A stretch of 64,000 bases of DNA from Candidatus Nanoarchaeia archaeon (GCA_035289605.1 DATDWR010000022.1:45295-109294); one strand, 5' to 3'; shown: positions 2,989 to 34,875, counted from the first letter of the stretch. The notes: generated from the letters alone by a model not told the origin. Made by a program: numbers and translations.

Positions 2989-5900
2989 TCACAATTTTTT
3001 TGTACTGTTATAGGATTTATAAGCCTTTGGGTAGTTGTATGGTATGTATCTTAGGTGTGGCAGAGTATTGTCTTTTTTCGGCCTTCTCCACTCCGTAAAG
3101 AATACTAGTGCGATTATTATAGTCATTAATAGCAGGAAGTTTAGTCCGTCTATTATTGGAAGCTTGACATCTATTGCAGGATTTATTTTTATTGGACCTT
3201 TTGTTGTTAATTTAATGTCCAGTTTTGGAACAGTTATTCCTCCTGTTGCATTCACGAATCTTATTAGTATCTCGCCTATGCCTTTTGTAGTGTTTAGTAT
3301 TAGGTCATATGATCCTCCTTCTCCTTTTGTGGAGTGTATTATTATAGCTCCTTCTTCAGTTTCTATTATCTTTGTCCCTTCAGGTATTTCTGCAGGTTTT
3401 TCAGGTTCTTGTGGTTCTTGCTGTGGTTCTTCTTGTAATGGTATTTGAGGTTTGGCATCTCCTCCTCCATTTCCATTTCCGCCACCTCCTCCTCCGCCTC
3501 CTTCACCGCCTCCTGATACTGGTGTTTCCTCGCTTGAATATGTAGTAAAGGTGTTGACTGAAAATGTAAATATGCCGCTCGAGTAGCTTATCTCTGTACA
3601 GCTTCCGCAGAAATCATAGGATCCGCTGTCCTGCAAATCTATTAATGGTCTTGGGTTTGTGAATGTTAGGCTGTTTATTGTTATATTAGCGCTTGTATTA
3701 AACGCCCAAGCTGCTGTGCTGTTCACCCTTACGAAATTGCTGTTTATTGCTATGTTTCCCGTAGTGTTTATAGCATTTTCTTTTGTGATGTTTACTGTAA
3801 TATTTTCATATCTTATGCTTCCGTTTTCGTTTCTTAGTGTTATATTTATGGCTGTAAAATTTGTATAGTTAATATAATATAGAAGCCCACTTGTTATATT
3901 AGTTAGTGTTGTGCCGTTTGCTCCTGCAAGATAGAAATCATATGATGTTGCATTTATTATTAAATCAGAGTAATTGGCATTTGTTGTGTCTACTGCATAT
4001 ATTCCTTTTCCTTCTTGTCCTGTAGATAGCAGAGTGCTGGATGTTATGTTTGTGCTTTTGGTTCCTGTTCCAAAGATTATTGCACTTGCATTATAGCCTG
4101 TGCTTTCAAATTTATTGTTGTTTATCCTGTTCTGGTTCGCTACATCTATATATAATATGTGGGAATTATTATTGTAGGTTGTTAGGTTATTGTCGCTTAT
4201 ATTATTCCTTAGTGTGCTTGACCTGAGGTATATTGCAGAAGATTCTACTCCTAATGTTGTTATGTTATTTGATATTATGAGATTTCCGCTGCTCTGCATC
4301 CTTATTCCGTGTGATGGCAGTCCAGTGCTTGTTGCACCTTCTGTGTAAATTATATTTTCTGTAACATTGTTGGCTCCTCCATCTCCGTTTAAGTCCAGTC
4401 CTGAAGTTATTGTAGTAGCGTAGCTGCGTATAACATTCTTAGTTATATTGTGATGAGAGACTCCAGTTAGCGCCAATGTGACAGTTGTAGAGCCAAACGA
4501 AGTTAGATTATTGAATGCTATGTTATTGTCCGCTATTGATCCTGAAGTTGACTGTGAAGCAAGTATCGCTTCTGCTGTTCCTCCAAATGTGGTTATATTA
4601 TTAGACAGAATGTTGTTAAATCTTGTCTGTCTTAATAGGTTTATGCCTTCTGCATTGCTTCCTGCAAGGGTTGTAAATGTAAAAATTATATTGTTTGTTA
4701 TGTTATTATAATCAGAAAAGAAGTTTGTTGATCCTATTCTATTTCCGGAAATTTTTATTCCAGCTGCACTTGTTCCGTTTGTCTCTATTTTGTTGTAAGA
4801 AATATTGGAGTTGCCGGTTTGGTTTAGCATTATTCCTGCACCATTAGTGAAGTTAATTAGAATTGTATTATTAAACACAACGCTGTTTGACGAATGATTC
4901 AATACTATACCATTCCTGAAATAGCTTACATTGCAGTTTTTGATGTAGCTGTCGCTTATGTTGTTAAACCATGCCCCTACTCCTGTTGTGTGGTTTCCAA
5001 GTATTTCGTAGCCGTTACAGTCAAATACTATGCTGCTGGCATTCAATATTATTCCGTCGCCATTGCATATATTTCCTCCTGTGCTGTTTATTATTCCTGC
5101 ATCTAGTGATATGTTCGTTGCTAAGTAGCTTCCGCATGTCAAATTTATTGTTGTGTAGTTGCTCAGTCCTGTAACATTAAAAATTCTCGGATTGTTGGAA
5201 ATTTTGTTGCAGCTTGGAGGTCTGCACTGCACATTATTTCTTAGGATAGTATAAGCATCTGTAGAGCTTGAGTTTGCATCATTGAATGTTATTGTTATTG
5301 AAGTGCTCCTGTTGTATATTTCTGAATTGTTTAGTATATTTGCATTGTTGCTGGTAAAATCTATGTCATTGGTTGTGTTGGACATGGTGTCAGATTCTAG
5401 TAATGTCATGTTAATTAAATTGATGTTTGTTGTTGAGTTTCCTAAGCTCAGATTATAGAATGTAGAATAAGACTCAACAATTGTTATCTTGCTGACTAGA
5501 TGATTGTCTAAAAATGTTATGTTTATTGATTTATTCAAGTAAATGTCTATTTGGCTGTTGTTTGATATTGTGTTGTTGGAGAAGCTAGCATTAGTCAATG
5601 CGCCTAGTGCAACACCGTAAGTGTTGTTGTATATTGTTGTGTTTATTATTGTTAGATTATACAAGTTTATCATTCTGGAGTTTATGCCGTAGAGTGAGCT
5701 TGTTATGTTGCAGTTTCTTATGAGCGTATTATTAAATCCTCCATCTATTAGTATGCTGCTGTTTGCGCTTGTCCCGTTTCCTTCTATTCTATTTCCCTGG
5801 CAGTCTAAAATAATATTGTTAGCTTTTATGTTTATGCAACTTCCATGTGAAGTTATATTGCTAGTTAGTTGTATTAAATTATTTGCCGTTGCTGCTGCAC

Positions 5901-6030
5901 TGTCACAGCTGCTACAAGTATCGCATGTTGCTGCTTCTGCATTAGCTGCTAGAATTAATATTAGAGAAAACAAAATTGTTGCAACTATATAAAATCTGTT
6001 CTCAGTTGTTAATTTATTTAAATTTATCAT
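2989..6030 (-). CDS. Giant cell-surface glycoprotein SP1: N-terminal signal/anchor, parallel beta-helix-like NxT/S-rich repeats, Gly-rich and P/E/Q-rich linker, C-terminal TM anchor
   Basis: 1013 aa. Hydrophobic N-terminus FYIVATILFSLILILAANAEA. Dozens of N-x-S/T sequons in short beta-helix-like repeats. Gly-rich tract GGGEGGGGGGGGNGNGGGDAKP followed by a P/E/Q-rich linker PQIPLQEEPQQEPQEPEKP. C-terminal helix LLLMTIIIALVFF followed by basic residues. Confidence 0.7.
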   Translation of the reverse strand: MINLNKLTTENRFYIVATILFSLILILAANAEAATCDTCSSCDSAAATANNLIQLTSNITSHGSCINIKANNIILDCQGNRIEGNGTSANSSILIDGGFNNTLIRNCNITSSLYGINSRMINLYNLTIINTTIYNNTYGVALGALTNASFSNNTISNNSQIDIYLNKSINITFLDNHLVSKITIVESYSTFYNLSLGNSTTNINLINMTLLESDTMSNTTNDIDFTSNNANILNNSEIYNRSTSITITFNDANSSSTDAYTILRNNVQCRPPSCNKISNNPRIFNVTGLSNYTTINLTCGSYLATNISLDAGIINSTGGNICNGDGIILNASSIVFDCNGYEILGNHTTGVGAWFNNISDSYIKNCNVSYFRNGIVLNHSSNSVVFNNTILINFTNGAGIMLNQTGNSNISYNKIETNGTSAAGIKISGNRIGSTNFFSDYNNITNNIIFTFTTLAGSNAEGINLLRQTRFNNILSNNITTFGGTAEAILASQSTSGSIADNNIAFNNLTSFGSTTVTLALTGVSHHNITKNVIRSYATTITSGLDLNGDGGANNVTENIIYTEGATSTGLPSHGIRMQSSGNLIISNNITTLGVESSAIYLRSSTLRNNISDNNLTTYNNNSHILYIDVANQNRINNNKFESTGYNASAIIFGTGTKSTNITSSTLLSTGQEGKGIYAVDTTNANYSDLIINATSYDFYLAGANGTTLTNITSGLLYYINYTNFTAINITLRNENGSIRYENITVNITKENAINTTGNIAINSNFVRVNSTAAWAFNTSANITINSLTFTNPRPLIDLQDSGSYDFCGSCTEISYSSGIFTFSVNTFTTYSSEETPVSGGGEGGGGGGGGNGNGGGDAKPQIPLQEEPQQEPQEPEKPAEIPEGTKIIETEEGAIIIHSTKGEGGSYDLILNTTKGIGEILIRFVNATGGITVPKLDIKLTTKGPIKINPAIDVKLPIIDGLNFLLLMTIIIALVFFTEWRRPKKDNTLPHLRYIPYNYPKAYKSYNSTKKL

Positions 6031-6548
6031 CTATTCCTCTTTTTTTTGGAGTTGTTGTATGCGGTCCAAACAGTCCTGTCATCTCTTTTGATGGCTAGCG
6101 CAATTTCGTGATAGCTAAATCTGAGATTTTCTTTTAAGTAAACAACAAGCGATTCTAGGGCAGATAACTCTGAATCTGCAAGAATTGCTACAGGTATTTG
6201 TATAGAATTTTTATCAATCGAAAGTTTTGATTTGTGTTTTTTCTTTGAATTGTCGAATGCATGCCAGATGTTTCTTTGGTCTCTTTTGAGCAGCCTAGAA
6301 ATATCGCATAGTGGAATATTACTTTCTTCTTTTAAGTATTTTACAACAGATTCTAGCACTGTTAATCTTTTGTTGAGAATTGAAACAGGAAAGCTTGCTT
6401 CCTGCTGTATTATCTGCAGTATTTCTTCATGCGATAAGCTATGCTTCTCTTTTAATGTAGAAATTAATTCTTTTATTTTTTTAATACTTAGTATATCATT
6501 CTTGTCTAATGCTGGATTAGTATGCCTAAAACCAGGTTTTTCCATCAA
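6027..6548 (-). CDS. Small DNA-binding protein with tandem sigma-70-region-4-like HTH repeats (HTH1)
   Basis: 173 aa. Two internal repeats, …LESVVKYLKEESNIPLCDISRLLKRDQRNIWHAFDNSKKK… and …LESLVVYLKENLRFSYHEIALAIKRDDRTVWTAYNNSKKKR…. The pattern LSYxEIA…TV…A.KK matches ECF sigma region 4. Stop overlaps the SP1 start by 4 nt. Paralogous to 27265..27828. Confidence 0.6.
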   Translation of the reverse strand: MMEKPGFRHTNPALDKNDILSIKKIKELISTLKEKHSLSHEEILQIIQQEASFPVSILNKRLTVLESVVKYLKEESNIPLCDISRLLKRDQRNIWHAFDNSKKKHKSKLSIDKNSIQIPVAILADSELSALESLVVYLKENLRFSYHEIALAIKRDDRTVWTAYNNSKKKRNR

Positions 6549-6570: not shown

Positions 6571-6642
6571 AATAATTTACGTATTATATAAGTATAAAAA
6601 GCTTAATAAAAAATAATTTTACGTATTATATAAGTATAAAAA
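6571..6642. promoter_or_regulatory. Two copies of a ~30-bp direct repeat carrying the inverted repeat TACGTA-N5-TAAGTA plus TATA-like sequence, upstream of HTH1
   Basis: aataatttacgtattatataagtataaaaa at 6571-6600 and again at 6612-6642, with a 41-42 bp period. These lie 28-95 nt upstream of the HTH1 start. Same 6-5-6 palindrome type as the array at 27079-27260. Confidence 0.45.
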
Positions 6643-18862: not shown

Positions 18863-21800
18863 TCACTTTTTTAGTTTAACTCTATAATGTTTTTTTGCTT
18901 TTATTGCATCTAAATCTACATTGTATTTATTGTGCGCCAGTATAAGTGCTATCATTAGTAGTAACGCGCCGCTGGCAGTTATTAATGAATAGAATATTAA
19001 TTTTTTTGTGTTGAATCTTCCTCCTGCATATTCTTTCGTCTCTAGTTTGCTGTATTCAGTTTTTGTTTCTTCTTCAGCTGGCTCTTTTCTGCGTTCTATT
19101 CCTACCAAATATAAACTCAATTTGTCGCTTTGTGCTGTATATTTCAGATTTCCGTTTTCTTCTCCATTATAATTAGTTTTTTTAGCAACCCATTTGCTGC
19201 CTTCCAGCCTGAATAATTTTATGTCATTAGGGCTGGCTTTATTATTTGTTATAAACTTCTTTTCTACTAAGAAAACCATTTCTATATCCTTAGCTTCTAT
19301 AGGTTGTATTTGGTTGGTTTGTGATTTGACAGCAAGTATTTCAAATGCTTTGTAAACAATATAATTTTCACTTTCTACATTTTTTTTGATGACCTGCAAT
19401 TTTATTCCCTCTATGTCAATGGACGGTTTGAAGGAGATTTCCATGATGCCTAACTCCCTGTTTTCAGGCTTGTAATTTATTGTAGATCCTCTTTTCGCGT
19501 TTTCTATATTTAAGACATTGGAAGCAGGAGGTAATGATCCTCTTTGTCCTCCGCCTCCTGAGCTTCTTCCTCCGCCTCCTCCATTTCCTTCACTGCTTTT
19601 CGCAGCAGATGTTGAGGGCTCAAACAACCATTCAGTAGCGCACCCGCTGCTTGAAAAGCTAGTATCTATAGTCTCGACGCACCAGAAATATTTTTTGCTG
19701 TTGTCTAATCCCAATGTTATATTACGCATCTGTTGCATGTTGCCGAAGGTGCCTGCTGCTGGTTTGCTTGAAAAACCGAAAACTTCGCTGATCACATCTC
19801 TCGCGCCAGATGAGGATCCTATTCTTAGTCTGTAATACAATCCGTCATTAGGTGTTTCAGTGTCATTTCCTGAAGTCCAGCTGAAATTTATAATATTATC
19901 TGAGTGGTCTATGAAGAAAAGTTGAGGCCTGTTTGGTCTTGTATTCGTATTCTCAATTTTATTTGTGTAAACAAAAGATCTTGCTTGAGAGGAAGTGTTT
20001 CCTGTCAGTATCATGTCCAGCTTTGTGTCGTTGTTTAAATCCATCAATAAAAGCACTGAAAAGTCCAGTGCTGTTAAATTATTGTTTAATGAGCTGTTTG
20101 AAGCAAAGCTTGTGCCGTTGTTTGTGTAAATTTTGGTGATTATGTCTGTGCCTGAACAGCTGGATCCTGTGTTGCATCCTGCTACAGCAAGATCAAGTTT
20201 GCCGTCATTGTTTACGTCGCCCAATTGTGCTTCTCCTCTGGCTGCAGTGTCAAGATCAACTTCCCATGTGGTGTTTCTTACAAAGCCGCTTCCGTTATTC
20301 TGGTAAATAATTCTGAATACAGTTCCGTTGTAGCCGTACCATGCAAGGTCCATGTCCCTGTCATTGTCTATGTCTCCGGATGCTATTGATGCCAATGCTG
20401 ATACAAAATTAACGCTCCATGTGCTGTTTGTCACATAGCTTGTTCCGTTGTTTTCATAAAACTGAGAGAATGGTCCCGAACCGCAATTAGTTGATTCATC
20501 ATTTGTTGATGGGCATCCTGACATGACTAAGTCTAAGTCATTGTCGTTGTCAGCATCTGTAAAAATGCTTGACCCGAATGCAAGGAATGTTATATTATTT
20601 GAGTAAGTATTGTTATAAATGAAAGAAGTTCCGTTGTTTGTGTAAACACCGCCGCTGGAGCTTGGGCAGGAAGTTGAGTTGCATCCTGTAATAAATAAGT
20701 CTATTAGTCCGTCTTCATTGATGTATCCTAATTGCACATTGCCTAAATACAAGTCTGTAGCATTCATTCCCCAGACTCTGTCTTCTGCAAAGCTTGTGCC
20801 GTTGTTAAGGAATACTTGTGTGTATATTGTTTTGTTTGCATCTCTTCCCATAGCAACAAGGTCTGTGTCTCCGTCCCTGTCTATGTCAGCTAACGCTCCT
20901 GAAGGTTGCCCGAGACCAGTTAGGTTTATCCCCCAGCTGTTGTTGACAGCGAGTGCAGTTCCATTATTGATGAACACCTTTCCGAAGCAGTCAGCGCTTC
21001 TGTTTACAGCATAGTCTGTGCAGCTGGAGCTGTCTCCAAAGATTATGACATCATTATAGCTGTCATTGTTTACATCGCCTCCTATTATTGCTCCCTTGAA
21101 TAATGCTGTTAGATTGTCTCCGAACGTGAAATTTTGCAGGAAGAATATATTTATTATGCTTGTAGTTATGTTGATGCTGCTGTTGGCCAGCGCATCGTTG
21201 CTTATGTTTACTCTGATTCCTGCTGTATAGTTTCCTATGGACTTGCTTGCTACTTGTAGTGTTGTCTCAAAGCTTGTTCCCCTTCCGGCAATGTTCCTTA
21301 TTGTAAAATTTGTGCTTGTATCATTAAACATTGCTGTGTCAGCGTTGTTGAAGTTAAATACGTAAACTGTTATGTTTTCTGTCTGGTTTCCGTCTCCGTC
21401 ATTTCTTATGGTTATTGTATAGCTCGTATTTGTGTCTGAATCTATAGTTTTATCAAACAAGTTGGTGCTCACGTTTAATTCTTTTAAATTCAGCAGGCTG
21501 ATCCTGGGCAGGTAGTCATTGGTCACGTTTTTGGCTGTGGTGTTTGTTACATTTACAGGTATGTCGCAGAAATCATTAGTGTTTATATCTAAGCATCCTT
21601 CTATCGGCCTGTCAAATTCCTGCCATAAGTTTCCTCCGCCTTCAGATGATGATGTGTTCCAGCTGTTGTTAAATCCGTCATCTATTATATTGCTTTTGTT
21701 TGTGAAGTTGTTCATGAATATCAGGCTGTTGTTTGTTCCCTTGTCCAAAGTTATAGTGTACCCAAAACATTTGGAAAATGTGTTATTATACATTCTGTTT

Positions 21801-24197: not shown

Positions 24198-24698
24198 ATG
24201 ATAAATAAAGAGCAGAGAGTTGGCGTATTTGTAGATGTGCAGAACCTTTACTATTCTGCAAGGGCTTTGTATAATGCTAAGGTGAATTTCAAGGAAATGC
24301 TTAAGGAGGCAGTAAGGGGAAGAAAGCTTGTCAGGGCAATAGCTTATGGTGTCAAGGCAAATGAGAAAGATGAAGTGCTTTTTCATAAGGCTTTGGATGA
24401 GATAGGTTTTGAAGTTAAGCTAAAAGACTTGCAGGTTTTTTATGGCGGAGCTAAGAAGGGGGACTGGGATGTTGGCATTGCTATAGATGCTATAGAGTTG
24501 GCTCCTAAGCTTGATGTTGCAGTGCTCGTAAGTGGTGATGGTGATTATGTTCCGCTGGTTGAGCATCTTAAGCGTGCTCTTGGCTGTCGCGTGGAGGTTA
24601 TGGCCTTCGGAAGAAGCTGCAGCGGAAAATTGATAGATTCTGCTGACCAGTTCAGTGACATGGATCACAATAAAAAATATATTTTATCTAAAAAATAA
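24198..24698 (+). CDS. NYN-domain (LabA-like) protein
   Basis: 166 aa. …VGVFVDVQNLYYSA… and …VLVSGDGDYVPLVEHLK… match NYN/LabA nuclease-fold motifs. Confidence 0.7.
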   Translation: MINKEQRVGVFVDVQNLYYSARALYNAKVNFKEMLKEAVRGRKLVRAIAYGVKANEKDEVLFHKALDEIGFEVKLKDLQVFYGGAKKGDWDVGIAIDAIELAPKLDVAVLVSGDGDYVPLVEHLKRALGCRVEVMAFGRSCSGKLIDSADQFSDMDHNKKYILSKK

Positions 24699-24704
24699 AA
24701 TTTT

Positions 24705-25157
24705 ATGCCTCATGAAAGATCATTCGGAAGTGTGATAATAAGAAAAGAAGGAAATAATGTTTTTTATCTTCTTCTTTATAGAAAATCTCATGGCAATTAC
24801 AAAGAATCGTGGGACTTTCCTCGTGGCTTGATTGAAAAGGATGAGAATCCTGAAGATACAGTAAAAAGAGAAGTCAAAGAGGAAACAGGATTAACCAATT
24901 TGAAATTTATAAAAGGCTTTAAGGAAACTATTAAGTGGTTTTACAGAAAAGATGGAATGCTTATAAGCAAAGAAGCTACTTACTTTCTCGCAGAGACTAG
25001 CAGCAAGGAAATAAAATTAAGCAAAGAGCATGATGGTTATAGGTGGTGCATCTATGAAGAAGCTTTAAAATTGATTAAATTTGAGAATACTAGGAACATT
25101 CTTAATAAGGCAAGGGAATTTCTGGCTAATTCCTTATTTTTCTATTGCTGGCTTTAG
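24705..25157 (+). CDS. Nudix hydrolase
   Basis: 150 aa. Nudix box …GLIEKDENPEDTVKREVKEETGL…. Confidence 0.8.
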   Translation: MPHERSFGSVIIRKEGNNVFYLLLYRKSHGNYKESWDFPRGLIEKDENPEDTVKREVKEETGLTNLKFIKGFKETIKWFYRKDGMLISKEATYFLAETSSKEIKLSKEHDGYRWCIYEEALKLIKFENTRNILNKAREFLANSLFFYCWL

Positions 25158-26292: not shown

Positions 26293-26490
26293 ATGATTAT
26301 TCCAATATGTTGTCTGGGCTGCGGCAAACCAGTAGCTCATTTATATGAGGATTTTAAAGATAGAACTTCTAAAGGAGAGCATCCTAAGAAAGTAATGGAT
26401 GAATTGGGTTTGGAAAGGTATTGTTGCAGGGCTTTGTTTATGGGCCATGTTGATCTTCTTGATACTGTGGCTAAATTCAAGAAAGCATAA
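26293..26490 (+). CDS. rpoN: DNA-directed RNA polymerase subunit N (Rpb10 homologue)
   Basis: 65 aa. MIIPICCLGCGKP…LGLERYCCRALFMGHVDLL is the RpoN zinc-bundle signature. Confidence 0.85.
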   Translation: MIIPICCLGCGKPVAHLYEDFKDRTSKGEHPKKVMDELGLERYCCRALFMGHVDLLDTVAKFKKA

Positions 26491-26625: not shown

Positions 26626-26945
26626 CTACTTAAAGATAAAGAATGTTAATACAAAAATTACAATCCATATTACGAATGCTACTAAGGCCCAGTCTTTTTT
26701 CCTTAAAAACGAGGTTATAGCTAGACTTAGTGTTGCTATAATTAATGGTATTAATTTTATTGGGTCTGTCATCTTACATTAGCTCCTATTACTAATAAAA
26801 AGTTTCCGAAAGCAAAAATTACTTGTGCTATAACATTTGATGGATTGGAAACTAAAAATGGTAAAGACAAAACGATTATAGCTGTAGCTGTTAATCTTAA
26901 AATAAACCCAGTTGTCAAGTGTAAATCTCCTGCTTCGTTAACCAT
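26626..26945 (-). CDS. Two translationally coupled small hydrophobic ORFs (about 58 aa and 48 aa)
   Basis: 26769..26945 encodes MVNEAGDLHLTTGFILRLTATAIIVLSLPFLVSNPSNVIAQVIFAFGNFLLVIGANVR. 26626..26772 encodes MTDPIKLIPLIIATLSLAITSFLRKKDWALVAFVIWIVIFVLTFFIFK. They share a 4-nt ATGA overlap. Both lie in an otherwise empty 750-bp gap. Confidence 0.25.
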
Positions 26946-27078: not shown

Positions 27079-27260
27079 TACTTACATAATAAGTATATAT
27101 TACTTACTTATTAAGTAGATAAAACATAATAATAAATATAAATACTTACATAATAAGTATATAATTTTTTAATTTAATTATATATAATATTAAATGATTA
27201 TTACTTACAAAATAAGTAAAATAGATAAATTTATATATAAAATTACTTACTTAATAAGTA
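27079..27260. promoter_or_regulatory. Array of five inverted-repeat operators TACTTAC-N3-(A/T)TAAGTA (6-5-6 palindrome TACTTA-N5-TAAGTA) plus TATA box upstream of HTH2
   Basis: Units at 27079-27095, 27101-27117, 27143-27159, 27202-27218 and 27244-27260. TTTATATATA sits at about -35 to -26 from the ATG. The last unit lies between the TATA box and the start codon. Confidence 0.5.
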
Positions 27261-27264
27261 AAAA

Positions 27265-27828
27265 ATGAATAAAAGAGATAGATATAGTAATTTTTCTAGA
27301 GATTTTGCTAGTTCTAAAAATACAGAAGCAATAAATTTGTTCTTAAAGTTTTTAGAGAAAGAAAAAGATTATGCAAAGAATAATATCGAAGAAGTAATAG
27401 AAATTGTAAAAAATCTTGAAGAAAAAAAATCTTTCAATGGCTCTTTGCCTTGCAATATTTTCAATGTGAAGGAACTAAGTTCTTTAGAAATAATAGCGAA
27501 ATATATCAGGGAGGAATTTAGTCTTTCTTATCATGAAATTGCAGTAATCCTTAACAGAGACGATAGGACTATTTGGTCAACTTACAATAATTCTCTTAAA
27601 AAATATAACAGAAAACTTGAGTGGCAGGGATCAAAATATTTTATTCCTGTTTCAATATTCAAAGATAGGGTATTCGGGGTTTTGGAATTAATTTGCGAAT
27701 ATCTGAAGGATAATTTTTCTCTTTCATACCATGATGTAGCTGTGATTGTAAACAGGAATGATAGGACTGTGTGGACTGCATATCAAAGGGCTAAGAAAAA
27801 GAGGTTAAATGAAAAACTACGACGCTAA
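27265..27828 (+). CDS. Small DNA-binding protein with tandem sigma-70-region-4-like HTH repeats (HTH2, paralogue of 6027..6548)
   Basis: 187 aa. Repeats …LEIIAKYIREEFSLSYHEIAVILNRDDRTIWSTYNNSLKKY… and …LELICEYLKDNFSLSYHDVAVIVNRNDRTVWTAYQRAKKKR…. The 3' end overlaps the SP2 start by 20 nt. Confidence 0.6.
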   Translation: MNKRDRYSNFSRDFASSKNTEAINLFLKFLEKEKDYAKNNIEEVIEIVKNLEEKKSFNGSLPCNIFNVKELSSLEIIAKYIREEFSLSYHEIAVILNRDDRTIWSTYNNSLKKYNRKLEWQGSKYFIPVSIFKDRVFGVLELICEYLKDNFSLSYHDVAVIVNRNDRTVWTAYQRAKKKRLNEKLRR

Positions 27829-30800
27829 AAGAGAAGCAGCTGGGCTGAGAAGGGAGATTCAGCTTATTGAGAACAGAAAGTTAGAGGTAGTTAATGCAGT
27901 TGAATCTCTAAGAAACCAGTATTATCAAGGATTGTTAGGATATGAAGATTACAAGGAAAGAATTAATAGGTCGCTGCAGGGACTTACTCCAAGGCAGACT
28001 CTTGACAAGTATAACGAGCAGATAAGGTCATGTAAAGAAAAGATTTCAAGACTTGAAAGCGTAAGAAGTGGTGTGCAGTTAAATGGTAACGTGCTTGTAG
28101 TTGTATTACTTCTTGTTGCTGCTCTGTCTTCAGTTCTTATATTGGCGAATGCAAAGTATGACTTGTTTGGTTTAGATAGTCCTGTAGGTTTCGTAGTTAA
28201 GGATGTTACAAATGATTCATTACTAAATATAACAGAAATAGTGCCAAAACCAGAAAATAATATTTCAATTAAGGATAGTGGGGAACCTGTAATAAATGAA
28301 ACCCTGAATAATATGACAGAGTCAGTGCTTGCGCAAGAGAAAAATATCTCTAAAGAAAGTGAAAATGTAACTGTAGAAGAAAATAAAACAAAATCAGAAG
28401 ATAAAAAGAAATACAGTATAGATAATGCAACAATACCTGAGGTTCCTGAGTTTGTAAAATCTAATAAATCTATAAAGGAAATTGTTGATGAAGTAGGAAT
28501 AAGTGTCCCTGTAGAAAAGATAGTGAGTATAGACAGGCTTAGTTTTGCAGCAGATGAGATAACAGTTAAAGGAAAAGATCTTAAAACATTGGTGATACAT
28601 AAGCCTATTATCTATGGAAAATCTTTCGGAGAAGCTATACCTTTAGTAGAAAAAGACGACTTTACATATGCGGCATCACTTGAGGACACTGCTGTAGAAC
28701 TTGAATTTGATTCTCCAGAAATAAAGAATGATAAGTTAGGAAGAAAATTCAGGCAGAGCAAAATATTAGGTGATCCTTCTTGGAAGATAGGATATAATTA
28801 CTTGCTTCCTGCAGGAGACTTTAATGCCACAGTAAGGTTCAGCTCAAGCACACCTATTAATGTTGAAGATAAATATTATGGAAGGTTTGTAACAGGTAAG
28901 TTTACTTTGGATTTTGGAGCTGAAAGAGAAAATGGATTTAATATAGAAATAGAGCAGGTGCACAGCAATATTGTTTACATTAGCCTTATTAAAAATTACA
29001 CAGATGCAGGACTCAAGCCTAATGACGAAGTATTCATTGATCCTACATTATCTATTAGTAGTCTTGTATATTTATGTGGAGAAGTCATTGACTATGATAA
29101 GATAGAAGTTATGAGTAATGGTATTCTTGGTATATGCAACAGAACAGCTACTAATCCTACAGGTTATGTTAATATTACTTTGGATAATGGAATCGAGGGT
29201 AATTTTACTGTTCATCCTTCTGGAAGGATAGGTGGTGGTGGTGCTGGAGGCAGAGCAGGTGCTGGAGAGGTAACTGCTGCAACATGTTCTACTCGAGGAG
29301 AGAATAATACAGGCCAGACAGGTGCTGCTGGTTGCGTAGCCAACTGGGGAGGAGGTTCTGGCACGCAGAGAGCATCTACAGGCGATAGTGCAGGTGGCGG
29401 AGGTGGAGGTTTTGGAGGTGCTGGAGGCAGGGGAGGTCGTAGTGCAGCTGATGAAGGTTATGTTCCTTCCAACGTTACAGGATCTGCTGATGATACATAT
29501 TTGTTTATGGGTGCTGGTGGTGGTGGAAGCAATGGTGATAATCCAGCAGCAGCAGGAGGTCCTGGAGGTGGGGGTATTAAGATAAGTGCAGGTGCTGGAT
29601 GGATCGGTATTAGAGGTATACTTAATGTTTCAGGACAGAATGGTAGTAATGGTGATGGTACTGATAATTCTGGAGGTGGAGGCGGCAGCGGAGGTCACGT
29701 TATATTAAGTGCAAAGACTATTCTTATGGATTCTAATACCAAGATTTTCGCTCATGGTTCTGGCGGTGGAATTGCTGGAGGAACTGGAGATGCCTGCGGT
29801 GGTGGAAGTGGTGGTGGCGGAAGAGTATTGTTTATTTATGAGTCTCTTTCAAACACTAGTTCGTTTGTATCAATTTATGGAGGTGTAGCTCAACTAGCTA
29901 ATTCAGATGCTGCATGCGATGCTGCTTCAGATCCTGGAGATCCAGAAGCAGGTGGAATTGGTAGCGTTTTGTATAATTCAACAACTACAACATTTGCAGA
30001 CTATCCTAGACCATTATTGAACAACCCCACAGATAATGAAGTAATTGTTGCAAAATCTAGTGTTAATATTAGTTTCAACTTTACTCCTATGATTGGGGAT
30101 AATAATTTTAAGAGTGCTACAATTTATGCAGATTGGAACAAGGGAGTGTTCGGAGCGAATAACACAAACAGAACTGCATTAACTAGCGGGTCAAATACAA
30201 TTATTAATGTTTCAGGTATAGCTAATGGTACTTGGACTTGGAATGTTTATATTTGTGATGAAGCAAATAACTGCAGGTTTAACAGTACTAATTATACTTT
30301 AGTGTTCAATAATGCTCCTAATATAACAAATGTATCTATACTGCCTGCTGATACAAATACTAGTGATACTTTGCTTGCAAATATAAGTGGTTTGTTTGAC
30401 TTTGATGGAGATAATATGGTGGAGGTTAATAATGTGAGTTATAACTGGTATGTTAACCAGACGCCTTTATTGCTGTTAAATATGCCTTTCACTAATCACA
30501 TTTATTCCAAGGATAATTTTACAACATTTGACTTTAGTGATAATGTGTTAGCAGGAACAGTGTATGCTGCTAAGCAGGGTACTTATGGTTCTGGACTGCC
30601 TAAATATACTACAGACAACTGTACTATTGGTGGCTGCTACAGGTTTAACGGCACTAATTATATTAACATTAGCGATCCTTTAAACAAAACTTTGGGAATG
30701 AGAGACTGGAGTATATTGTTCTGGTATGATGCAGAGCAGAGTAGAGTTATAGATGAGATAGCATTAGGCAGTTGGAATGTAGTTTACTCTAGAAGAGAGG

Positions 30801-33250
30801 GAATAAATGATGCAGCATTTATTGGTTTAGAAGTTCAAGTTGGAAGAGATTATCTTAGTGGAGGTAATGCAGCAAACTTTATTGTATTCGTTTATTACAG
30901 AAACAGGACATTGAGTGGGGATAACCTAAAATTCAGGGACACTTCTGCAGCAAACAAAACTAGGTTTATAGCTATACTGAGAGATGGAGATACAGGAAAT
31001 ACTAGTGTTTTATTCAATGGTACATCAATAGATAGCCAGAGTGGTATATTCGGCCCGCTTGTAAATAATATTACTACTTTATATTCAACTTTAGGTATTC
31101 CATCAATATCAGGTTCTGGAGGCAGAGGATTAAATGGTACAATTGACGAGTTCCAGATATATAATAGAACATTAAGTGTTGAAGAAGTTTACCAGATATA
31201 TAACAACGGTAAGGGCAATTACAGTTTAATGGTTCAGGAAGAAACAGCAGTGGATGAAGTCTGGAATGTTACAGCAGTTCCAGTTGATAAAACAGGTGCG
31301 AATGGATCAATGGTTAGGTCCACTAGTGTTACAATTATAAGTACAGACCCTCCGACAGTTAATTTAAATTACCCTATTTCAATAATACCCGGAACAAAAC
31401 CTACCATAATTGATCCTAGATTTAATATTAGCTTTAATTTCACGCCTACAGCAGGAGGTAACAGTTTAAAGAATGCAACTATTTGGGGTAACTGGAGTAA
31501 TGGCGTACAAAAACCGAATGCTACAAACATTTACTCATTGGAAAATAATGCTCCTTCATATATTAACGTCTCAGGCATTCCTAATGGTACTTGGTCATGG
31601 ACAGTTTACGTATGCGATACAGCACATCGTTGTGCATACAATACATCAAATGTAACATTTGTTGCAAATAATGCGCCTAATATTTCCATTGTTAAAATAC
31701 TTCCTTCAGATATATCTGTGGGAGATAATTTAACAGCAAACTTAACAAAACTTGTAGATGAAGATGGAAACTATCAGGTTAACCATAACAATATTAGTTA
31801 TAATTGGTACAACAATCAGACATCAATTACCTTGCTTAATGTACCATTTACTAATCCAATATATTCAAAGGATAATTTTTCAACATTTGATTTCAGCGGC
31901 TACAATCACAATTTATCCTCTTATGACCTGGCATGGGATGCTTCCACTGGTGCCCAATATACAAATGAGAACTGTACAATTGGAGGTTGTTATAGATTCA
32001 ACGGAAGTATAGATTCATTCTTGCAGATAAGGAATATTACAGGAGTAGGGGCTCCAAATGAATTGTTGGGAATGGTAAATTGGAGTATGATATTTTGGTA
32101 TGATCCTGAAGGAAAGGTAAGAGATAACGTTGATGGAAACGAGAGAATAATATATGATGCAAGCGGCGGCACACCTACAGGATATAGTCCTAGAGTGGCA
32201 ACTCTTCTAAACTCGCCTCAACTACAAATAAAAGTATACATAACAAACACAAGTCTTGACCAGTTTTCCGCAACATTTTCTTCAAATCCTCAGCTTGGCA
32301 ATCCTCAAAAGAAGTTTATTGCTGTAATAAGAAATGGAAATACTGGTAACGTTACTGTCATATTTAATGGGACACAATCAACAAGTTCATCTGCATCTTA
32401 TGGTCCTATGGTTAATGCTACATGGTTGGATGGTTCAGTGATTACTATAGGAGGAAAATCAGGAGGAACTAATGACGATATTAATGGCACTCTTGATGAG
32501 TTCATGATTTTTAACAGAACTTTGACTCCTGAGCAGGTCTATGAATTTTATAATAACCATATCGGTAATTACAGCAAGATAGTAAACCAAGAGTTGAAAG
32601 CAGGAGAAATTTGGAATGTTACAGCAGTTCCTATTGACAATGATGGACTGAATGGTTCAATGATCAGATCAGCAAATATAACTATACCTACTGCGGCACA
32701 GCCTACAGCAATATCTTGCATATGGAGTGATGCAGCATTAAACATTAGTTTCGGTGAAGGATTATCTCAGTCCTTATCCCAAGGAGTTATATATAATGCT
32801 TCTAAGAACTTCGAAGGTTATATTGGTGGAAGCAATCAAAATGTAGGTATTAACTGGACCCATTATAATGTGACAGCAGACTCTACAAATACAGCTCCAG
32901 TTAACATAACTATAAAGGGAGATCATTTATTGTCAGGATCAAATGTTTTGGGTATTACAAACATTACTTGGATGACTAATGAAACTAATGGTAATGCTAC
33001 AGATGTGTCTGGAGAGTTATGGAACTTCACATATTTGGGCAAGAACGTGAAAGATTCAAACTTTGAGGGATTCAACTTGACTTTAATAAAAGATGGTGAT
33101 CCTAAGTTGGCAGTAAGAAACAGGAACTTCTCAAACCAGTTGACAGCAGGAAGCAGTATGTGGTACAGGTTTTGGCTGCATGTTCCTACAGCTCAGATAC
33201 AGGGAAGTTATGTGGGTAATTACACAATGGAGTGCAGTGCAGCATCATAA
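27809..33250 (+). CDS. Giant cell-surface glycoprotein SP2: N-terminal coiled-coil + signal anchor, Gly-rich region, two tandem ~430-aa modules each ending in a LamG/ConA-like lectin domain
   Basis: 1813 aa. TM VLVVVLLLVAALSSVLILANA follows about 95 charged residues. Gly-rich tracts (GGGGAGGRAGAGE…, GGGGGGFGGAGGRGG…). Duplicated modules NNAPNI(T/S)…YNWY(V/N)NQT…CTIGGCYRFNG…W(S/M)I(L/F)FWYD…DEF(Q/M)I(Y/F)NRTL(S/T)(V/P)E(E/Q)VY(Q/E)(I/F)YNN… carry the LamG-type LDEV(R)IYNRALS-like motif. Confidence 0.7.
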   Translation: MKNYDAKREAAGLRREIQLIENRKLEVVNAVESLRNQYYQGLLGYEDYKERINRSLQGLTPRQTLDKYNEQIRSCKEKISRLESVRSGVQLNGNVLVVVLLLVAALSSVLILANAKYDLFGLDSPVGFVVKDVTNDSLLNITEIVPKPENNISIKDSGEPVINETLNNMTESVLAQEKNISKESENVTVEENKTKSEDKKKYSIDNATIPEVPEFVKSNKSIKEIVDEVGISVPVEKIVSIDRLSFAADEITVKGKDLKTLVIHKPIIYGKSFGEAIPLVEKDDFTYAASLEDTAVELEFDSPEIKNDKLGRKFRQSKILGDPSWKIGYNYLLPAGDFNATVRFSSSTPINVEDKYYGRFVTGKFTLDFGAERENGFNIEIEQVHSNIVYISLIKNYTDAGLKPNDEVFIDPTLSISSLVYLCGEVIDYDKIEVMSNGILGICNRTATNPTGYVNITLDNGIEGNFTVHPSGRIGGGGAGGRAGAGEVTAATCSTRGENNTGQTGAAGCVANWGGGSGTQRASTGDSAGGGGGGFGGAGGRGGRSAADEGYVPSNVTGSADDTYLFMGAGGGGSNGDNPAAAGGPGGGGIKISAGAGWIGIRGILNVSGQNGSNGDGTDNSGGGGGSGGHVILSAKTILMDSNTKIFAHGSGGGIAGGTGDACGGGSGGGGRVLFIYESLSNTSSFVSIYGGVAQLANSDAACDAASDPGDPEAGGIGSVLYNSTTTTFADYPRPLLNNPTDNEVIVAKSSVNISFNFTPMIGDNNFKSATIYADWNKGVFGANNTNRTALTSGSNTIINVSGIANGTWTWNVYICDEANNCRFNSTNYTLVFNNAPNITNVSILPADTNTSDTLLANISGLFDFDGDNMVEVNNVSYNWYVNQTPLLLLNMPFTNHIYSKDNFTTFDFSDNVLAGTVYAAKQGTYGSGLPKYTTDNCTIGGCYRFNGTNYINISDPLNKTLGMRDWSILFWYDAEQSRVIDEIALGSWNVVYSRREGINDAAFIGLEVQVGRDYLSGGNAANFIVFVYYRNRTLSGDNLKFRDTSAANKTRFIAILRDGDTGNTSVLFNGTSIDSQSGIFGPLVNNITTLYSTLGIPSISGSGGRGLNGTIDEFQIYNRTLSVEEVYQIYNNGKGNYSLMVQEETAVDEVWNVTAVPVDKTGANGSMVRSTSVTIISTDPPTVNLNYPISIIPGTKPTIIDPRFNISFNFTPTAGGNSLKNATIWGNWSNGVQKPNATNIYSLENNAPSYINVSGIPNGTWSWTVYVCDTAHRCAYNTSNVTFVANNAPNISIVKILPSDISVGDNLTANLTKLVDEDGNYQVNHNNISYNWYNNQTSITLLNVPFTNPIYSKDNFSTFDFSGYNHNLSSYDLAWDASTGAQYTNENCTIGGCYRFNGSIDSFLQIRNITGVGAPNELLGMVNWSMIFWYDPEGKVRDNVDGNERIIYDASGGTPTGYSPRVATLLNSPQLQIKVYITNTSLDQFSATFSSNPQLGNPQKKFIAVIRNGNTGNVTVIFNGTQSTSSSASYGPMVNATWLDGSVITIGGKSGGTNDDINGTLDEFMIFNRTLTPEQVYEFYNNHIGNYSKIVNQELKAGEIWNVTAVPIDNDGLNGSMIRSANITIPTAAQPTAISCIWSDAALNISFGEGLSQSLSQGVIYNASKNFEGYIGGSNQNVGINWTHYNVTADSTNTAPVNITIKGDHLLSGSNVLGITNITWMTNETNGNATDVSGELWNFTYLGKNVKDSNFEGFNLTLIKDGDPKLAVRNRNFSNQLTAGSSMWYRFWLHVPTAQIQGSYVGNYTMECSAAS

Positions 33251-33316: not shown

Positions 33317-34171
33317 ATGGAAATAGTGAATAAAAATGGATACTATTATTTGAAGCATTCTTATAGGAAAAATAATAAAATTGTAACAAAAGAGAAATAT
33401 CTTGGAAAAGTAATACCTGAAAATATTGAAAAACTAAAAAAAGAGTTACAAAGTGAAAGTAAAAAATTAGTATATGAGAAAATTAGAAGAATCAGGAATA
33501 ATTATAAAAAAGAATGGAATAAATATCCTCATTCTGTAAAAAGAGAGTTATTAATAAATCTCTCAGTAAATTTTACATACAATACTAATGCGATAGAAGG
33601 CTCACCGATAACAAAGGAAGAAACAGAAGATATAATAAAAAGAAAAATAGCCCCAAATAGGTCGCTGGACGATATTAAGGAAACTATAAATCATTCAAAA
33701 ATTTTTCTTGATATGTTGAATGAAAAGAAAGAATTAAGCCTGCAATTAATATTAAAATGGCATAAAGGAATATTCCTAGAATCTAAGCCTGATATTGCTG
33801 GCAAATTAAGGGATTATAATGTAAAAGTAGGGGAATATAGATGTCCTGATTGGCAGGACGTAAAGAACTTTACAGATAAATTTCTAAATTGGTATAATAA
33901 AAATAAATATAAAGAACATCCTGTAGAGCTAGCCGCACTTATGCATTACAAATTTGTCAAAATACATCCTTTTGGCGATGGCAATGGGAGAATTGCAAGA
34001 GTTATAACAAACTTTATTCTTCATAAATATAAATATCCATTAATTATTATAGATTATAAAAATAGGAGGTCTTATTATAAAGCACTTAAAAAAGCTGACT
34101 CTAAGGGGGAATATGAATTTATAAAATATTTTATTCGGAGATACTTATCTGATTATAAAAGATATTTATAA
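33317..34171 (+). CDS. Fic-domain protein (AMPylase family)
   Basis: 284 aa. Canonical Fic motif HPFGDGNGRIAR and upstream …TNAIEGS…. Confidence 0.8.
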   Translation: MEIVNKNGYYYLKHSYRKNNKIVTKEKYLGKVIPENIEKLKKELQSESKKLVYEKIRRIRNNYKKEWNKYPHSVKRELLINLSVNFTYNTNAIEGSPITKEETEDIIKRKIAPNRSLDDIKETINHSKIFLDMLNEKKELSLQLILKWHKGIFLESKPDIAGKLRDYNVKVGEYRCPDWQDVKNFTDKFLNWYNKNKYKEHPVELAALMHYKFVKIHPFGDGNGRIARVITNFILHKYKYPLIIIDYKNRRSYYKALKKADSKGEYEFIKYFIRRYLSDYKRYL

Positions 34172-34231: not shown

Positions 34232-34486
34232 TTGAATACCAATATGACAACAAAGACAATTAAGAGTGTAGATGATGAGGTTTGGTATAAATTTAGGTTT
34301 CTTGCTGTTAAAAATAGGCTTGGAATGGGAAAATTATTGGGAGAGATGATAAATGAGTATGAATTTAAGTCAAAAGAATTTTGGAAAGAAATTCTAGAAG
34401 GTGAGAGATTATTAACAGACAAGGAAGCGTCTGAATTATTAAGCGAAATAAAAAAATCAAGAAAAGAGCATGGATTTAGAAAATGA
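34232..34486 (+). CDS. Putative antitoxin partner of downstream PIN toxin
   Basis: 84-aa small charged protein. Its stop overlaps the start of the PIN gene (ATGA). Fold not assignable from sequence. Confidence 0.4.
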   Translation: MNTNMTTKTIKSVDDEVWYKFRFLAVKNRLGMGKLLGEMINEYEFKSKEFWKEILEGERLLTDKEASELLSEIKKSRKEHGFRK

Positions 34487-34875
34487 GCCTAATTTTTGAT
34501 AATTCTGTATTAATAGAGCTAGAAAGAAGAAACACAATTATAATAGACAAAATAAAAACGTATGTAGAAATTTACCCATCGCCTGCAGGTATTACATTTA
34601 TTAATTATTTTGAATTTTATCACTGCCTGAAAAACAAAGAGATTAAAAATAAAGAAAAAGCAATGTCTTTTATTAATAAATTCAATGTGCTTAAAGTAAC
34701 AAAAAAAACTGCAGAAATATTAAGTGAATTGAAAAAGGAATGTAAAAATAAGGGAGAAATGCTGCCATTAGCAGATTTATTGATTGCAAGCCAGGTTATA
34801 GAGAATAATTGTGTTTTAGTGACTCTGGATAAGGATTTTAAGAGGATAGAAAAATTAAATAAACTAATTTTATAA
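34483..34875 (+). CDS. vapC: PIN-domain toxin (VapC-like)
   Basis: 130 aa. MSLIFDNSVLIEL… and …LADLLIASQVIENNCVLVTLDKDF… fit the PIN acidic-residue pattern. Confidence 0.65.
   Translation: MSLIFDNSVLIELERRNTIIIDKIKTYVEIYPSPAGITFINYFEFYHCLKNKEIKNKEKAMSFINKFNVLKVTKKTAEILSELKKECKNKGEMLPLADLLIASQVIENNCVLVTLDKDFKRIEKLNKLIL

Follow-up and report, generated by a model that had tools for sequence, protein, structure and literature searches.

Five mostly phased palindromes before a tandem-HTH regulator gene as its probable autoregulatory operators in a DPANN archaeon

The control region of HTH2, a regulator gene of a Woesearchaeota-type DPANN archaeon, contains five copies of the palindrome TACTTA-N5-TAAGTA. 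These palindromes are very probably binding sites of the HTH2 protein itself, because the motif precedes related genes and changes together with the residues that would read the DNA. The observations are probably explained jointly by a set of cognate operators, each 17-bp unit taken up by one HTH2 monomer, through which the operon of HTH2 and the surface-protein gene SP2 would be negatively autoregulated. Binding, stoichiometry, transcription start, sign of regulation and cooperativity are all features that we infer from sequence. The features discussed are summarized in Table 1, where "the window" is the whole 64-kb stretch of DNA that was analysed.

Table 1. Features in the 64,000-nucleotide window; spacings between operators are start to start.
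Feature	Position	Strand	Description
SP1	2989..6030	-	1013-aa beta-helix (NosD-like) surface protein; 4-nt overlap with HTH1
HTH1	6027..6545	-	172-aa HTH2 paralogue; repeat-1 recognition helix KRDQRNIWHAF, Asn in place of HTH2 Thr102
HTH1 proximal operator	6578..6594	.	TACTTATATAATACGTA in gene (minus-strand) orientation; 1-mismatch match
HTH1 distal operator	6620..6636	.	Same sequence as proximal; 42 bp away
Operator O1	27079..27095	.	TACTTACATAATAAGTA; exact motif match; identical to O3
Operator O2	27101..27117	.	TACTTACTTATTAAGTA; 22 bp after O1; exact motif match; in first copy of the 101-bp-offset duplication
Operator O3	27143..27159	.	TACTTACATAATAAGTA; 42 bp after O2 (four helical turns); exact motif match
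Operator O4	27202..27218	.	TACTTACAAAATAAGTA; 59 bp after O3; ends 12 nt before TATA box; exact motif match
Putative TATA box, HTH2-SP2 operon	27230..27237	+	TTTATATA; starts 14 nt before O5; function inferred
Operator O5, promoter-proximal	27244..27260	.	TACTTACTTAATAAGTA; 42 bp after O4; exact motif match
HTH2	27265..27828	+	187-aa regulator; two tandem sigma-70-region-4-like HTH repeats (about residues 60-115 and 126-180)
SP2	27809..33250	+	1813 aa (translation and Pfam); 20-nt overlap with HTH2

HTH1 and HTH2 share 39% identity (E=2e-31) and are paralogues, as an earlier note on this DNA had proposed, and the overlap between HTH2 and SP2 is also as it described (SP2 begins at 27809 and HTH2 ends at 27828). 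A tblastn search of the window for further HTH paralogues returned HTH1 and HTH2 only. The N-terminal 55 residues of HTH2 form low-confidence helices. SP2 begins with about 94 aa of cytoplasmic coiled coil, followed by one transmembrane (TM) helix; its large extracellular part contains two Laminin_G_3 domains (Pfam) and many N-x-S/T sequons. SP1, for which homology to SP2 was rejected, has a signal/TM segment at its N-terminus and a TM anchor at its C-terminus. The description of the HTH2 locus as a second copy of an HTH-surface protein module is therefore right for the regulator and the gene order and wrong for the surface proteins, which are unrelated.

The five units, with the coordinates and spacings that had been claimed for them, are the only exact matches to TACTTA-N5-TAAGTA in the window, and dinucleotide-preserving shuffles of the window (n=100) gave none. 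Allowing up to one mismatch, the window has eight matches in total against 0.52 expected, the additional ones being at 6578 and 6620 in the HTH1 promoter (TACGTATTATATAAGTA) and at 8134 within an ORF. An imperfect duplication with a 101-bp offset (80-nt copies at 27086-27165 and 27187-27266) underlies the O2-O3 and O4-O5 pairs. Units O1 to O4 are located upstream of the putative TATA box. O5 lies downstream of it and ends 4 nt before the HTH2 ATG (27265), confirming that one unit sits between the TATA box and the start codon; the same layout is found in many related loci.

The operator region has about 27% GC, and its spacer (YATAA) and flanks are TATA-like. These properties favor a reading, raised in the earlier note as a generic composition effect, of the palindromes as a by-product of AT-rich archaeal promoter DNA (TATA/BRE-like). 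The densities of the motif make this reading extremely improbable. Related loci were retrieved using a 9-sequence family alignment, and 159 loci (1.12 Mb) plus the window were scanned with up to one mismatch unless the motif is called exact. In the first 79 loci, 70 matches were found in 24.6 kb upstream of HTH genes versus 11 in 790 kb elsewhere. Across all 159 loci and the window, matches reached 4.06/kb upstream of family genes, compared with 0.081/kb in the rest of the non-ORF DNA, which is similar in GC, and 0.003/kb where ORFs cover the DNA. The enrichment upstream of family genes is approximately 50-fold over other non-coding DNA. The exact motif was found 34 times in non-ORF DNA upstream of family genes within the 1.12 Mb, but not once in 74 kb of other non-ORF DNA or in 920 kb of ORF DNA, which upholds the earlier proposal of operator-type palindromes tied to the HTH gene. 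These results were reproduced in an independent metagenome set. The absence of copies from the shuffles also speaks against a compositional origin, as does the near invariance of C at half-site position 3 (99%) and G at position 15 (94%) among 178 sites, and the generic AT-rich explanation was rejected because the non-ORF densities contradict it.

The motif recurs before related genes in dozens of other DPANN archaea, and the most conserved position of a site in the family is between the TATA box and the start codon. Of 46 proximal operators in related loci, 29 have the sequence TTTAWA starting at most 20 nt upstream (12-16 nt in 27), and the start codon mostly follows the proximal operator after 0-5 or 13 nt. 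Adjacent sites are spaced at distances clustering at 21, 32, 42, 53, 63 and 73 bp, which are multiples of 10.5 bp. When unit spacing was compared with helical phasing, as the earlier note had suggested, phasing with a 10.5-bp period was detected family-wide (Rayleigh R=0.69, p ~7e-12, n=54) and again in a second locus set (R=0.73, p ~2e-11, n=46); the HTH2 spacings of 22, 42 and 42 bp fit this period and the 59 bp from O3 to O4 are out of phase. Under the motif definition, 62 of 140 family genes have no site, so the operator is either not universal or has diverged.

Half-site variants covary with recognition-helix residues in a side-specific manner, in support of the operator reading. The repeat-2 residue (T168 in HTH2) covaries with position 4 of the distal half-site (26/0 and 8/44 in the 2 x 2 table, p=5e-14); Asn in repeat 2 is accompanied by distal TACATA in 26 of 26 cases, which represent five clusters at 60% identity and maybe one clade. 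Shared ancestry partly inflates the covariation. The repeat-1 residue (T102) covaries with position 4 of the proximal half-site (10/4 and 3/61, p=2e-7). Crossed comparisons of each repeat with the opposite half-site were not significant (p=0.2 and 0.08). At the residue preceding, a change from Arg to Lys goes with TTCTTA on the matching side. Residues 101-102 and 167-168 occupy the first turn of the third helix of their respective repeats. The pattern persists at the level of 60%-identity clusters and was replicated in the second locus set. From this we infer that repeat 1 recognizes the half-site nearer the gene and repeat 2 the one farther away.

Inverted repeats of this kind might instead be DNA cruciforms, RNA hairpins, or recombination or mobile-element sites serving phase variation of surface proteins. 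Such readings draw on the perfect 6-5-6 palindromes adjoining surface-protein genes, on the evolution of the arrays by tandem duplication, and on the label 'transposase' given by one source to one family member along with Pfam matches to HTH_23 and HTH_38. However, the consensus half-sites are non-complementary in 67 of 78 promoters, and the conserved feature is thus not a stem; TACATA paired with TAAGTA, for example, has an A·A clash and is stably inherited. The half-sites vary independently and track protein residues, and stems of 6 bp rich in A/T would be weak. As for recombination, the sites are found upstream of the gene only and never flanking it, the orientation of the TATA box relative to the gene is constant, and neither a recombinase nor a DDE domain was detected in the HTH proteins or the scanned neighbors. 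Integration-site ideas are likewise unsupported because the window contains no tRNA genes. These readings are accordingly very improbable, and all three (hairpin, cruciform, recombination site) were rejected on the grounds that the half-sites are mostly non-complementary and vary independently.

The HTH1 promoter allows the specificity of the two paralogues to be compared. Two copies of TACGTA-N5-TAAGTA are present there within a direct repeat, as had been described, although the repeat measures 36 nt (86% identical, 42 bp apart) rather than 30 bp. TACGTA, the variant half-site, is the one nearer the gene. The proximal operator overlaps a TATA-like sequence, and its end is 32 nt away from the ATG, a geometry unlike that of HTH2. 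In the earlier note, the resemblance between the promoters was taken to indicate one operator shared by HTH1 and HTH2, which would cross-regulate both operons as a common regulon. The operators differ at just one of 12 half-site positions, the distal half-site TACTTA is identical, and the 42-bp pair spacing is present in both promoters. But the base that differs is the very position that tracks Thr or Asn in repeat 1: proximal TACGTA occurs with Asn (HTH1, QRN) in 4 of 4 cases, HTH1 among them, and with Thr, the HTH2 residue, in 0 of 64. In addition, no other good copy of the HTH1 or HTH2 operator motif exists in the remainder of the 64 kb. A common regulon is therefore quite unlikely, and HTH1 and HTH2 appear to be separate circuits with distinct cognate sites, because the TACGTA base matches the repeat-1 Asn of HTH1 itself.

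In the autoregulatory model, one HTH2 monomer would bind each 17-bp unit as a pseudo-dimer in fixed orientation, with both half-sites on one face of the DNA because their centers are 11 bp apart. O5 would span approximately -17 to -1 relative to the start of a near-leaderless transcript, this start being placed by the TATA position only. Occupancy of O5 would block recruitment of RNA polymerase or promoter opening, so that HTH2 would negatively regulate its own operon with SP2. The upstream units, mostly whole helical turns apart (22, 42 and 42 bp), probably raise occupancy through cooperative binding on the same face, but these upstream sites could also activate instead of repress. HTH1 would run in parallel, as a circuit of its own acting on the variant operator TACTTA-N5-TACGTA. 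According to a view cited in the paper on EnfR (PMC10570040), archaeal repressors usually bind downstream of the BRE, the TATA-box region included, and so block formation of the pre-initiation complex; EnfR is itself a sigma-r4-like archaeal repressor. Among the features of an autoregulated repressor, HTH2 has an HTH domain and an inverted repeat in its own promoter that overlaps the core promoter, and in the family the site is conserved in orthologous promoters and covaries with recognition-helix residues.

The family of HTH1 and HTH2 comprises about 2,000 sequence clusters, with relatives from Woesearchaeota and Nanoarchaeota MAGs, and its members all have two tandem sigma-70-region-4-like HTH repeats. 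After almost every family gene, and overlapping it, comes a gene that encodes a surface protein with a membrane anchor. No description of the family or its motif turned up in literature searches. Each repeat has the sigma region 4 fold, and the structural match spans just one 53-residue repeat; Foldseek against the PDB gave no full-length structural match, and a PDB sequence search with the family profile gave nothing below E=0.3. No named NCBIfam family was matched, and sigma models match region-4 segments only, at 16-26 bits versus cutoffs of 194-323. Although the region 4 HTH domain of the sigma-70 family is present, other features of a bacterial-type sigma factor are lacking: Sigma70_r2 had no Pfam match in HTH1 or HTH2 at E<=0.1, the host has an archaeal RNA polymerase (RpoN subunit gene at 26293-26490), and family promoters have TTTAWATA TATA boxes with the palindrome downstream of the TATA box and are not of the -35/-10 type. 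The 'sigma-70 factors' reported in Woesearchaeota are likely to be regulators acting at operators of TATA promoters rather than sigma factors.

The sigma-like fold leads to a further reading, in which the HTH2 operators are real but the module resembles ECF sigma/anti-sigma pairs: the phased upstream sites would mediate positive autoregulation, and the SP2 coiled coil would tether the regulator until an extracellular cue arrives. As in ECF systems, the regulator gene overlaps, and is probably co-transcribed with, a gene that follows it and encodes a single-pass membrane protein. SP2 and 46 of 128 downstream partners have in common a cytoplasmic domain of about 90 aa that precedes a TM helix, and partners bearing this domain are enriched among operator-bearing loci (33/13 and 39/43, p=0.01). 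The four units upstream of the TATA box would suit activation, and 'sigma-70' genes with no identified anti-sigma have been noted in Woesearchaeota (Castelle et al., 2021). Nevertheless, the most conserved site position is one where archaeal repressors bind, and the putative target of HTH2 is a palindrome and not an asymmetric -35 element; the cytoplasmic domain is absent from SP1 and most other partners; neither Pfam nor NCBIfam detects an anti-sigma domain; and region 2 is missing in a host with an archaeal polymerase. This reading is unlikely. A broader proposal, also unlikely, makes the regulator and the giant surface protein an archaeal equivalent of ECF signalling. The coiled-coil tail would sequester the regulator, which would be set free by contact with a host cell or by a ligand bound to the extracellular lectin-like domains. 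If true, every adhesin operon in DPANN archaea would be under feedback control by a regulator-operator pair of its own, insulated from the others, and this would explain why Woesearchaeota were reported to have 'sigma factors without anti-sigma factors'.

Almost nothing of gene regulation in DPANN archaea has been charted, since hardly any of them have been cultured; for attachment to hosts, their giant surface proteins are the foremost candidates. With the cognate operators favored here, a widespread regulator family gains a candidate DNA motif, which can be used to predict regulons in DPANN MAGs, and a promoter architecture that can be rebuilt in vitro. It also gains a candidate recognition rule for the first turn of each recognition helix: a Thr there is paired with T at half-site position 4, an Asn with A and a Cys with G.

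Among known systems, EnfR (TON_1525, PDB 8HNO; PMC10570040), of the Tfx type, represses through a (pseudo)palindrome overlapping the core promoter, as is proposed for HTH2. EnfR has one HTH and an acidic alpha+beta C-terminal domain and binds a 36-bp site as a homodimer, whereas HTH1 and HTH2 have two HTH repeats per chain, no Tfx-type Pfam domain or other further domain, and predicted sites of 17 bp that are arrayed and helically phased. The family profile shows no sequence relationship to any PDB chain, 8HNO included.

Two DNA-reading modules within one polypeptide, placed in adjacent major grooves, are found in MarA/AraC-type regulators and single-chain LAGLIDADG homing endonucleases. Duplication of modules in one chain lets the two half-sites diverge independently, and the side-specific covariation in the HTH family resembles this. 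AraC-type HTHs belong to another fold family and read direct, asymmetric sites, while two repeats reading an inverted repeat imply a pseudo-two-fold arrangement. Ss-LrpB of Saccharolobus solfataricus is a dimeric Lrp/AsnC winged-HTH protein with a RAM domain, with a different motif and no known link to surface-protein genes. It is autoregulated through several regularly spaced, helically phased palindromic boxes in its own promoter, and the control region of HTH2 likewise contains several phased palindromic boxes, an arrangement suggestive of cooperativity and autoregulation.

The palindrome TACTTA-N5-TAAGTA occurs in five exact copies (O1-O5, starting at 27079, 27101, 27143, 27202 and 27244) upstream of the regulator gene HTH2, and these are the only exact copies in the 64-kb window. 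The array is real and far beyond chance: 100 dinucleotide-preserving shuffles of the window yielded no exact match, and with at most one mismatch the window holds eight matches against 0.52 expected. Two of these are the mutually identical TACGTATTATATAAGTA sites at 6578 and 6620 in the promoter of HTH1, placed 42 bp apart within a 36-nt direct repeat; the remaining one, at 8134, lies within an ORF. The start-to-start distances of O1-O5 are 22, 42, 59 and 42 bp, and the O2-O3 and O4-O5 pairs are explained by an imperfect 80-nt duplication with a 101-bp offset (27086-27165 versus 27187-27266, 73% identical). All coordinates and sequence statements of the earlier note on the array were correct. 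O1-O3 lie 134-214 nt from the start of two divergent small membrane-protein genes and could affect these too.

Features of the window around the two regulator modules
Feature	Position	Strand	Description
SP1	2989-6030	minus	Surface-protein partner of HTH1; beta-helix protein, N-terminal signal/TM segment, C-terminal anchor
HTH1	6027-6545	minus	Regulator, 172 aa
Third giant surface protein	18863-23926	minus	1687 aa; FG-GAP repeats, beta-helix/NosD
NYN and NUDIX genes	24198-25157		
RNA polymerase subunit N gene	26293-26490		
Two predicted small membrane proteins	26626-26945	minus	58 and 48 aa; divergent from HTH2 control region
O5	27244-27260		6 nt past TTTATATA (27230-27237); 4 nt before ATG at 27265
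HTH2	27265-27828		Regulator, 187 aa
SP2	27809-33250		Surface-protein partner of HTH2; 20-nt overlap with HTH2
Fic/DOC-family gene	33317-34171		Directly downstream of SP2
PIN-domain gene	34483-34875		Downstream of SP2, after Fic/DOC-family gene

HTH1 and HTH2 are paralogues (39% identity, E=2e-31), and tblastn found no third paralogue in the window. Both have a poorly conserved helical N-terminus followed by two tandem repeats of about 55 residues (consensus IPxSIFxxxxLSxLExIVKYLKExxxLSYHEIAxLLNRDDRTIWTxYxRAKKK), assigned by Pfam to Sigma70_r4_2. An AlphaFold2 model built with 118 homologues has pLDDT >90 at residues 60-187 and contains two three-helix units, each with a short strand ahead of it. 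Searched with a family profile, 1.84 billion representative proteins gave 2,071 clusters at E<=1e-10, and 79 loci from genomes and 80 from metagenomes were sampled. Some members of 300-370 aa carry two full units, i.e. four HTH repeats, and others are giant proteins (up to 5919 aa) with the two-repeat unit at their C-terminus (P0121-P0160; L065 289-6900; L072 96-2672); such cases may reflect true fusion, or gene calls that ran on from a surface-protein gene lying upstream.

The motif is concentrated upstream of the family genes. In the first 79 loci, 70 matches with at most one mismatch fall in 24.6 kb of HTH-upstream DNA, compared with 11 in 790 kb elsewhere. With a crude ORF mask applied to the full 1.12 Mb, there were 34 exact matches and 4.06 matches/kb (at most one mismatch) in 40 kb of non-ORF DNA upstream of HTH genes, no exact match and 0.081/kb in 74 kb of other non-ORF DNA, and no exact match and 0.003/kb in 920 kb of ORF-covered DNA. 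The earlier note named as its refutation a generic AT-rich or TATA composition effect, with the motif similarly dense in other intergenic DNA; the densities of the two non-ORF classes exclude this, as their GC contents are similar (0.27 upstream of HTH genes and 0.30 elsewhere, for a closely similar though not identical partition). At least one site is present in 78 of 140 non-redundant family genes and at least two in 48, which puts the five-unit array of the window near the top of the distribution; no recognisable site was found for the other 62, whose operators may have diverged further. Longer arrays exist; L112 (2634-2901), for example, has eight units spaced by 31-32 bp. Long arrays in related promoters arose by tandem duplication (L112 2634-2901, L141 2716-2922, L027 5615-5812, L145 952-1096); in L027 and L145, two spacer variants alternate along five units with a spacing of 32 bp. 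The consensus of 178 sites is T-A-C-(T/A)-T-A-(C/T)-A-T-A-A-T-A-A-G-T-A. Although the spacer was not part of the search, it is conserved and asymmetric, with C in 47% of sites at position 7 and G in just 14% at the mirror position 11.

The distances separating neighbouring sites fall into clusters at 20-22, 30-33, 41-43, 51-55, 62-65, 73-75 and 83-84 bp. For a period of 10.5 bp, the genome set gave a Rayleigh R of 0.69 (p about 7e-12, 54 spacings, mean phase +0.2 bp) and the metagenome set 0.73 (p about 2e-11, 46 spacings), so sites tend to share one helix face. The 22-, 42- and 42-bp distances in the window are in phase; the 59-bp gap between O3 and O4 is not, which leaves two phased groups, O1-O3 and O4-O5.

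Half-sites were read as 5'-TACTTA-3' toward the centre, with each site oriented with its gene. Where repeat 2 has Asn at the equivalent of HTH2 T168, the gene-distal half-site is TACATA in 26/26 genes, and where it has Thr, distal position 4 is T in 44/52 (Fisher p=5e-14). Asn in repeat 1 at the T102 equivalent accompanies a gene-proximal TACGTA in 4/4 genes; Cys, Gly, Met or Val accompanies TACATA; and Thr accompanies T at proximal position 4 in 61 of 64 genes, with A or G in none (Fisher p=2e-7). The crossed comparisons were not significant (repeat 1/distal p=0.08, repeat 2/proximal p=0.2). Arg to Lys one residue before the covarying position pairs with TTCTTA on the matching side. The pattern is present in the genome set and again in the metagenome set, and is kept at the level of 60%-identity clusters. 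The AlphaFold2 model places the covarying residues of both repeats in the opening turn of helix three, which in sigma region 4 is the DNA-contacting helix. Half-sites are non-identical in 67 of 78 promoters; self-complementarity is therefore not what is conserved, which argues against reading the sites as hairpins, cruciforms or recombination sites. In the simplest model, we infer that one monomer would bind each 17-bp unit as a single-chain pseudo-dimer, its repeat 1 occupying the proximal half-site and its repeat 2 the distal one, and its two halves could evolve separate specificities. In one subgroup (L048, L059, L060, L068, L075), repeat 1 reads NRS(S/N)KTIW, a shortened repeat 2 reads LDDRTIW, and the upstream variants are TCTTATATAATAAGA or TACTTA-N5-TAAGAA.

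The same family rule fits both regulators of the window. In HTH1, repeat 1 carries QRN and repeat 2 DRT, and the HTH1 operators in gene orientation, TACTTA-TATAA-TACGTA, are the predicted combination; HTH2, whose two repeats both carry DRT, has fully symmetric sites (TACTTA/TAAGTA). The one-base difference between the promoters thus appears to be a difference in specificity. A shared operator and a common regulon, as the earlier note had proposed, are not borne out: each operator fits the repeat-1 residue of its own regulator, and no good copy of either operator type was found in the 64-kb window beyond the two promoters. The modules rather resemble two autoregulatory circuits insulated from each other, with some cross-binding possible. 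The autoregulatory operator array, the core of the earlier interpretation, is strongly supported by the comparative evidence.

Among 46 promoter-proximal operators (<=60 nt from the start codon), 29 have a TTTAWA beginning <=20 nt upstream, 12-16 nt in 27 of those, and the gap to the start codon is mostly 0-5 or 13 nt. The HTH2 promoter is an exact fit to this TATA-operator-start codon layout. In archaea the usual distance from the TATA centre to the transcription start is about 26 bp, by which we infer a start at about 27260; the HTH2 mRNA would be nearly leaderless, O5 would span about -17 to -1, and protein on O5 would block polymerase recruitment or promoter opening. According to a view cited in the paper on EnfR, a repressor of the archaeal Tfx/EnfR family, the core-promoter region where O5 sits is the usual place of action of archaeal repressors (PMC10570040). 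Given both this and the position of O5, negative autoregulation appears the most economical reading.

Downstream of nearly every HTH gene comes one that encodes a membrane-anchored protein of 200 to >2000 aa, usually with an overlap of 4 to 60 nt between the two genes, and these cargo proteins are very diverse. The N-terminus of SP2 is a cytoplasmic coiled coil of about 94 residues; the protein also has a single TM helix and, outside the cell, a large portion with two Laminin_G_3 domains and many glycosylation sequons. SP1 and SP2 are not homologous. Of 128 cargo proteins encoded immediately after a family HTH gene, 46 have an N-terminus of the SP2 type, coiled coil plus TM helix. This domain is commoner at operator-bearing loci (p=0.01) and matches no Pfam or NCBIfam model. 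The SP2 N-domain (27809-28100, residues 1-95) recurs in L001, L004, L011, L014, L017, L024, L026, L027 and others. The third giant surface-protein gene has neither an adjacent HTH gene nor an upstream operator motif. Partner proteins in most loci carry a PSITGF, ITGY or LTGF-like motif just past the N-terminal TM helix, which may serve DPANN surface proteins as a conserved signal for processing or anchoring. Several contigs (L005, L012, L021, L029, L079) have two modules in tandem, 3-5 kb apart, and the differing repeat-1 recognition helices within these pairs suggest arrays of insulated modules. Many MAG records with a DPANN-type module (e.g. L003, L010, L016, L019) are titled "uncultured Methanosarcinales archaeon", probably a taxonomic mislabel judging from gene content.

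The host is an archaeon, as indicated by the RNA polymerase subunit N gene and by HTH2 relatives from Woesearchaeota, Nanoarchaeota and Pacearchaeota MAGs. HTH1 and HTH2 are not sigma factors: they lack region 2, the organism has an archaeal polymerase, and their target is palindromic and lies downstream of a TATA box. "Sigma-70" genes have been described as "particularly prevalent in Woesearchaeota", where neither an anti-sigma factor nor a clear mechanism was reported for them (Castelle et al., 2021), and these are likely the same family. ECF sigma/anti-sigma pairs are alike in their fold, in their overlapping genes and in having a membrane partner whose N-domain is cytoplasmic; the resemblance is suggestive for SP2-type partners but does not hold for SP1-type ones, and Pfam and NCBIfam revealed no anti-sigma domain. 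The closest characterised proteins are the archaeal repressors of the Tfx/EnfR group, which contain a sigma-r4-like HTH and bind pseudo-palindromes that cover the core promoter; however, these have a single HTH with a separate dimerising domain and no sequence relationship to HTH1 or HTH2. An autoregulated HTH regulator with a palindromic operator is thus known as a kind, whereas the single-chain tandem sigma-4-like architecture, the readable recognition code linking HTH residues and half-sites, the helically phased operator arrays and the conserved link to DPANN surface-protein genes are new.
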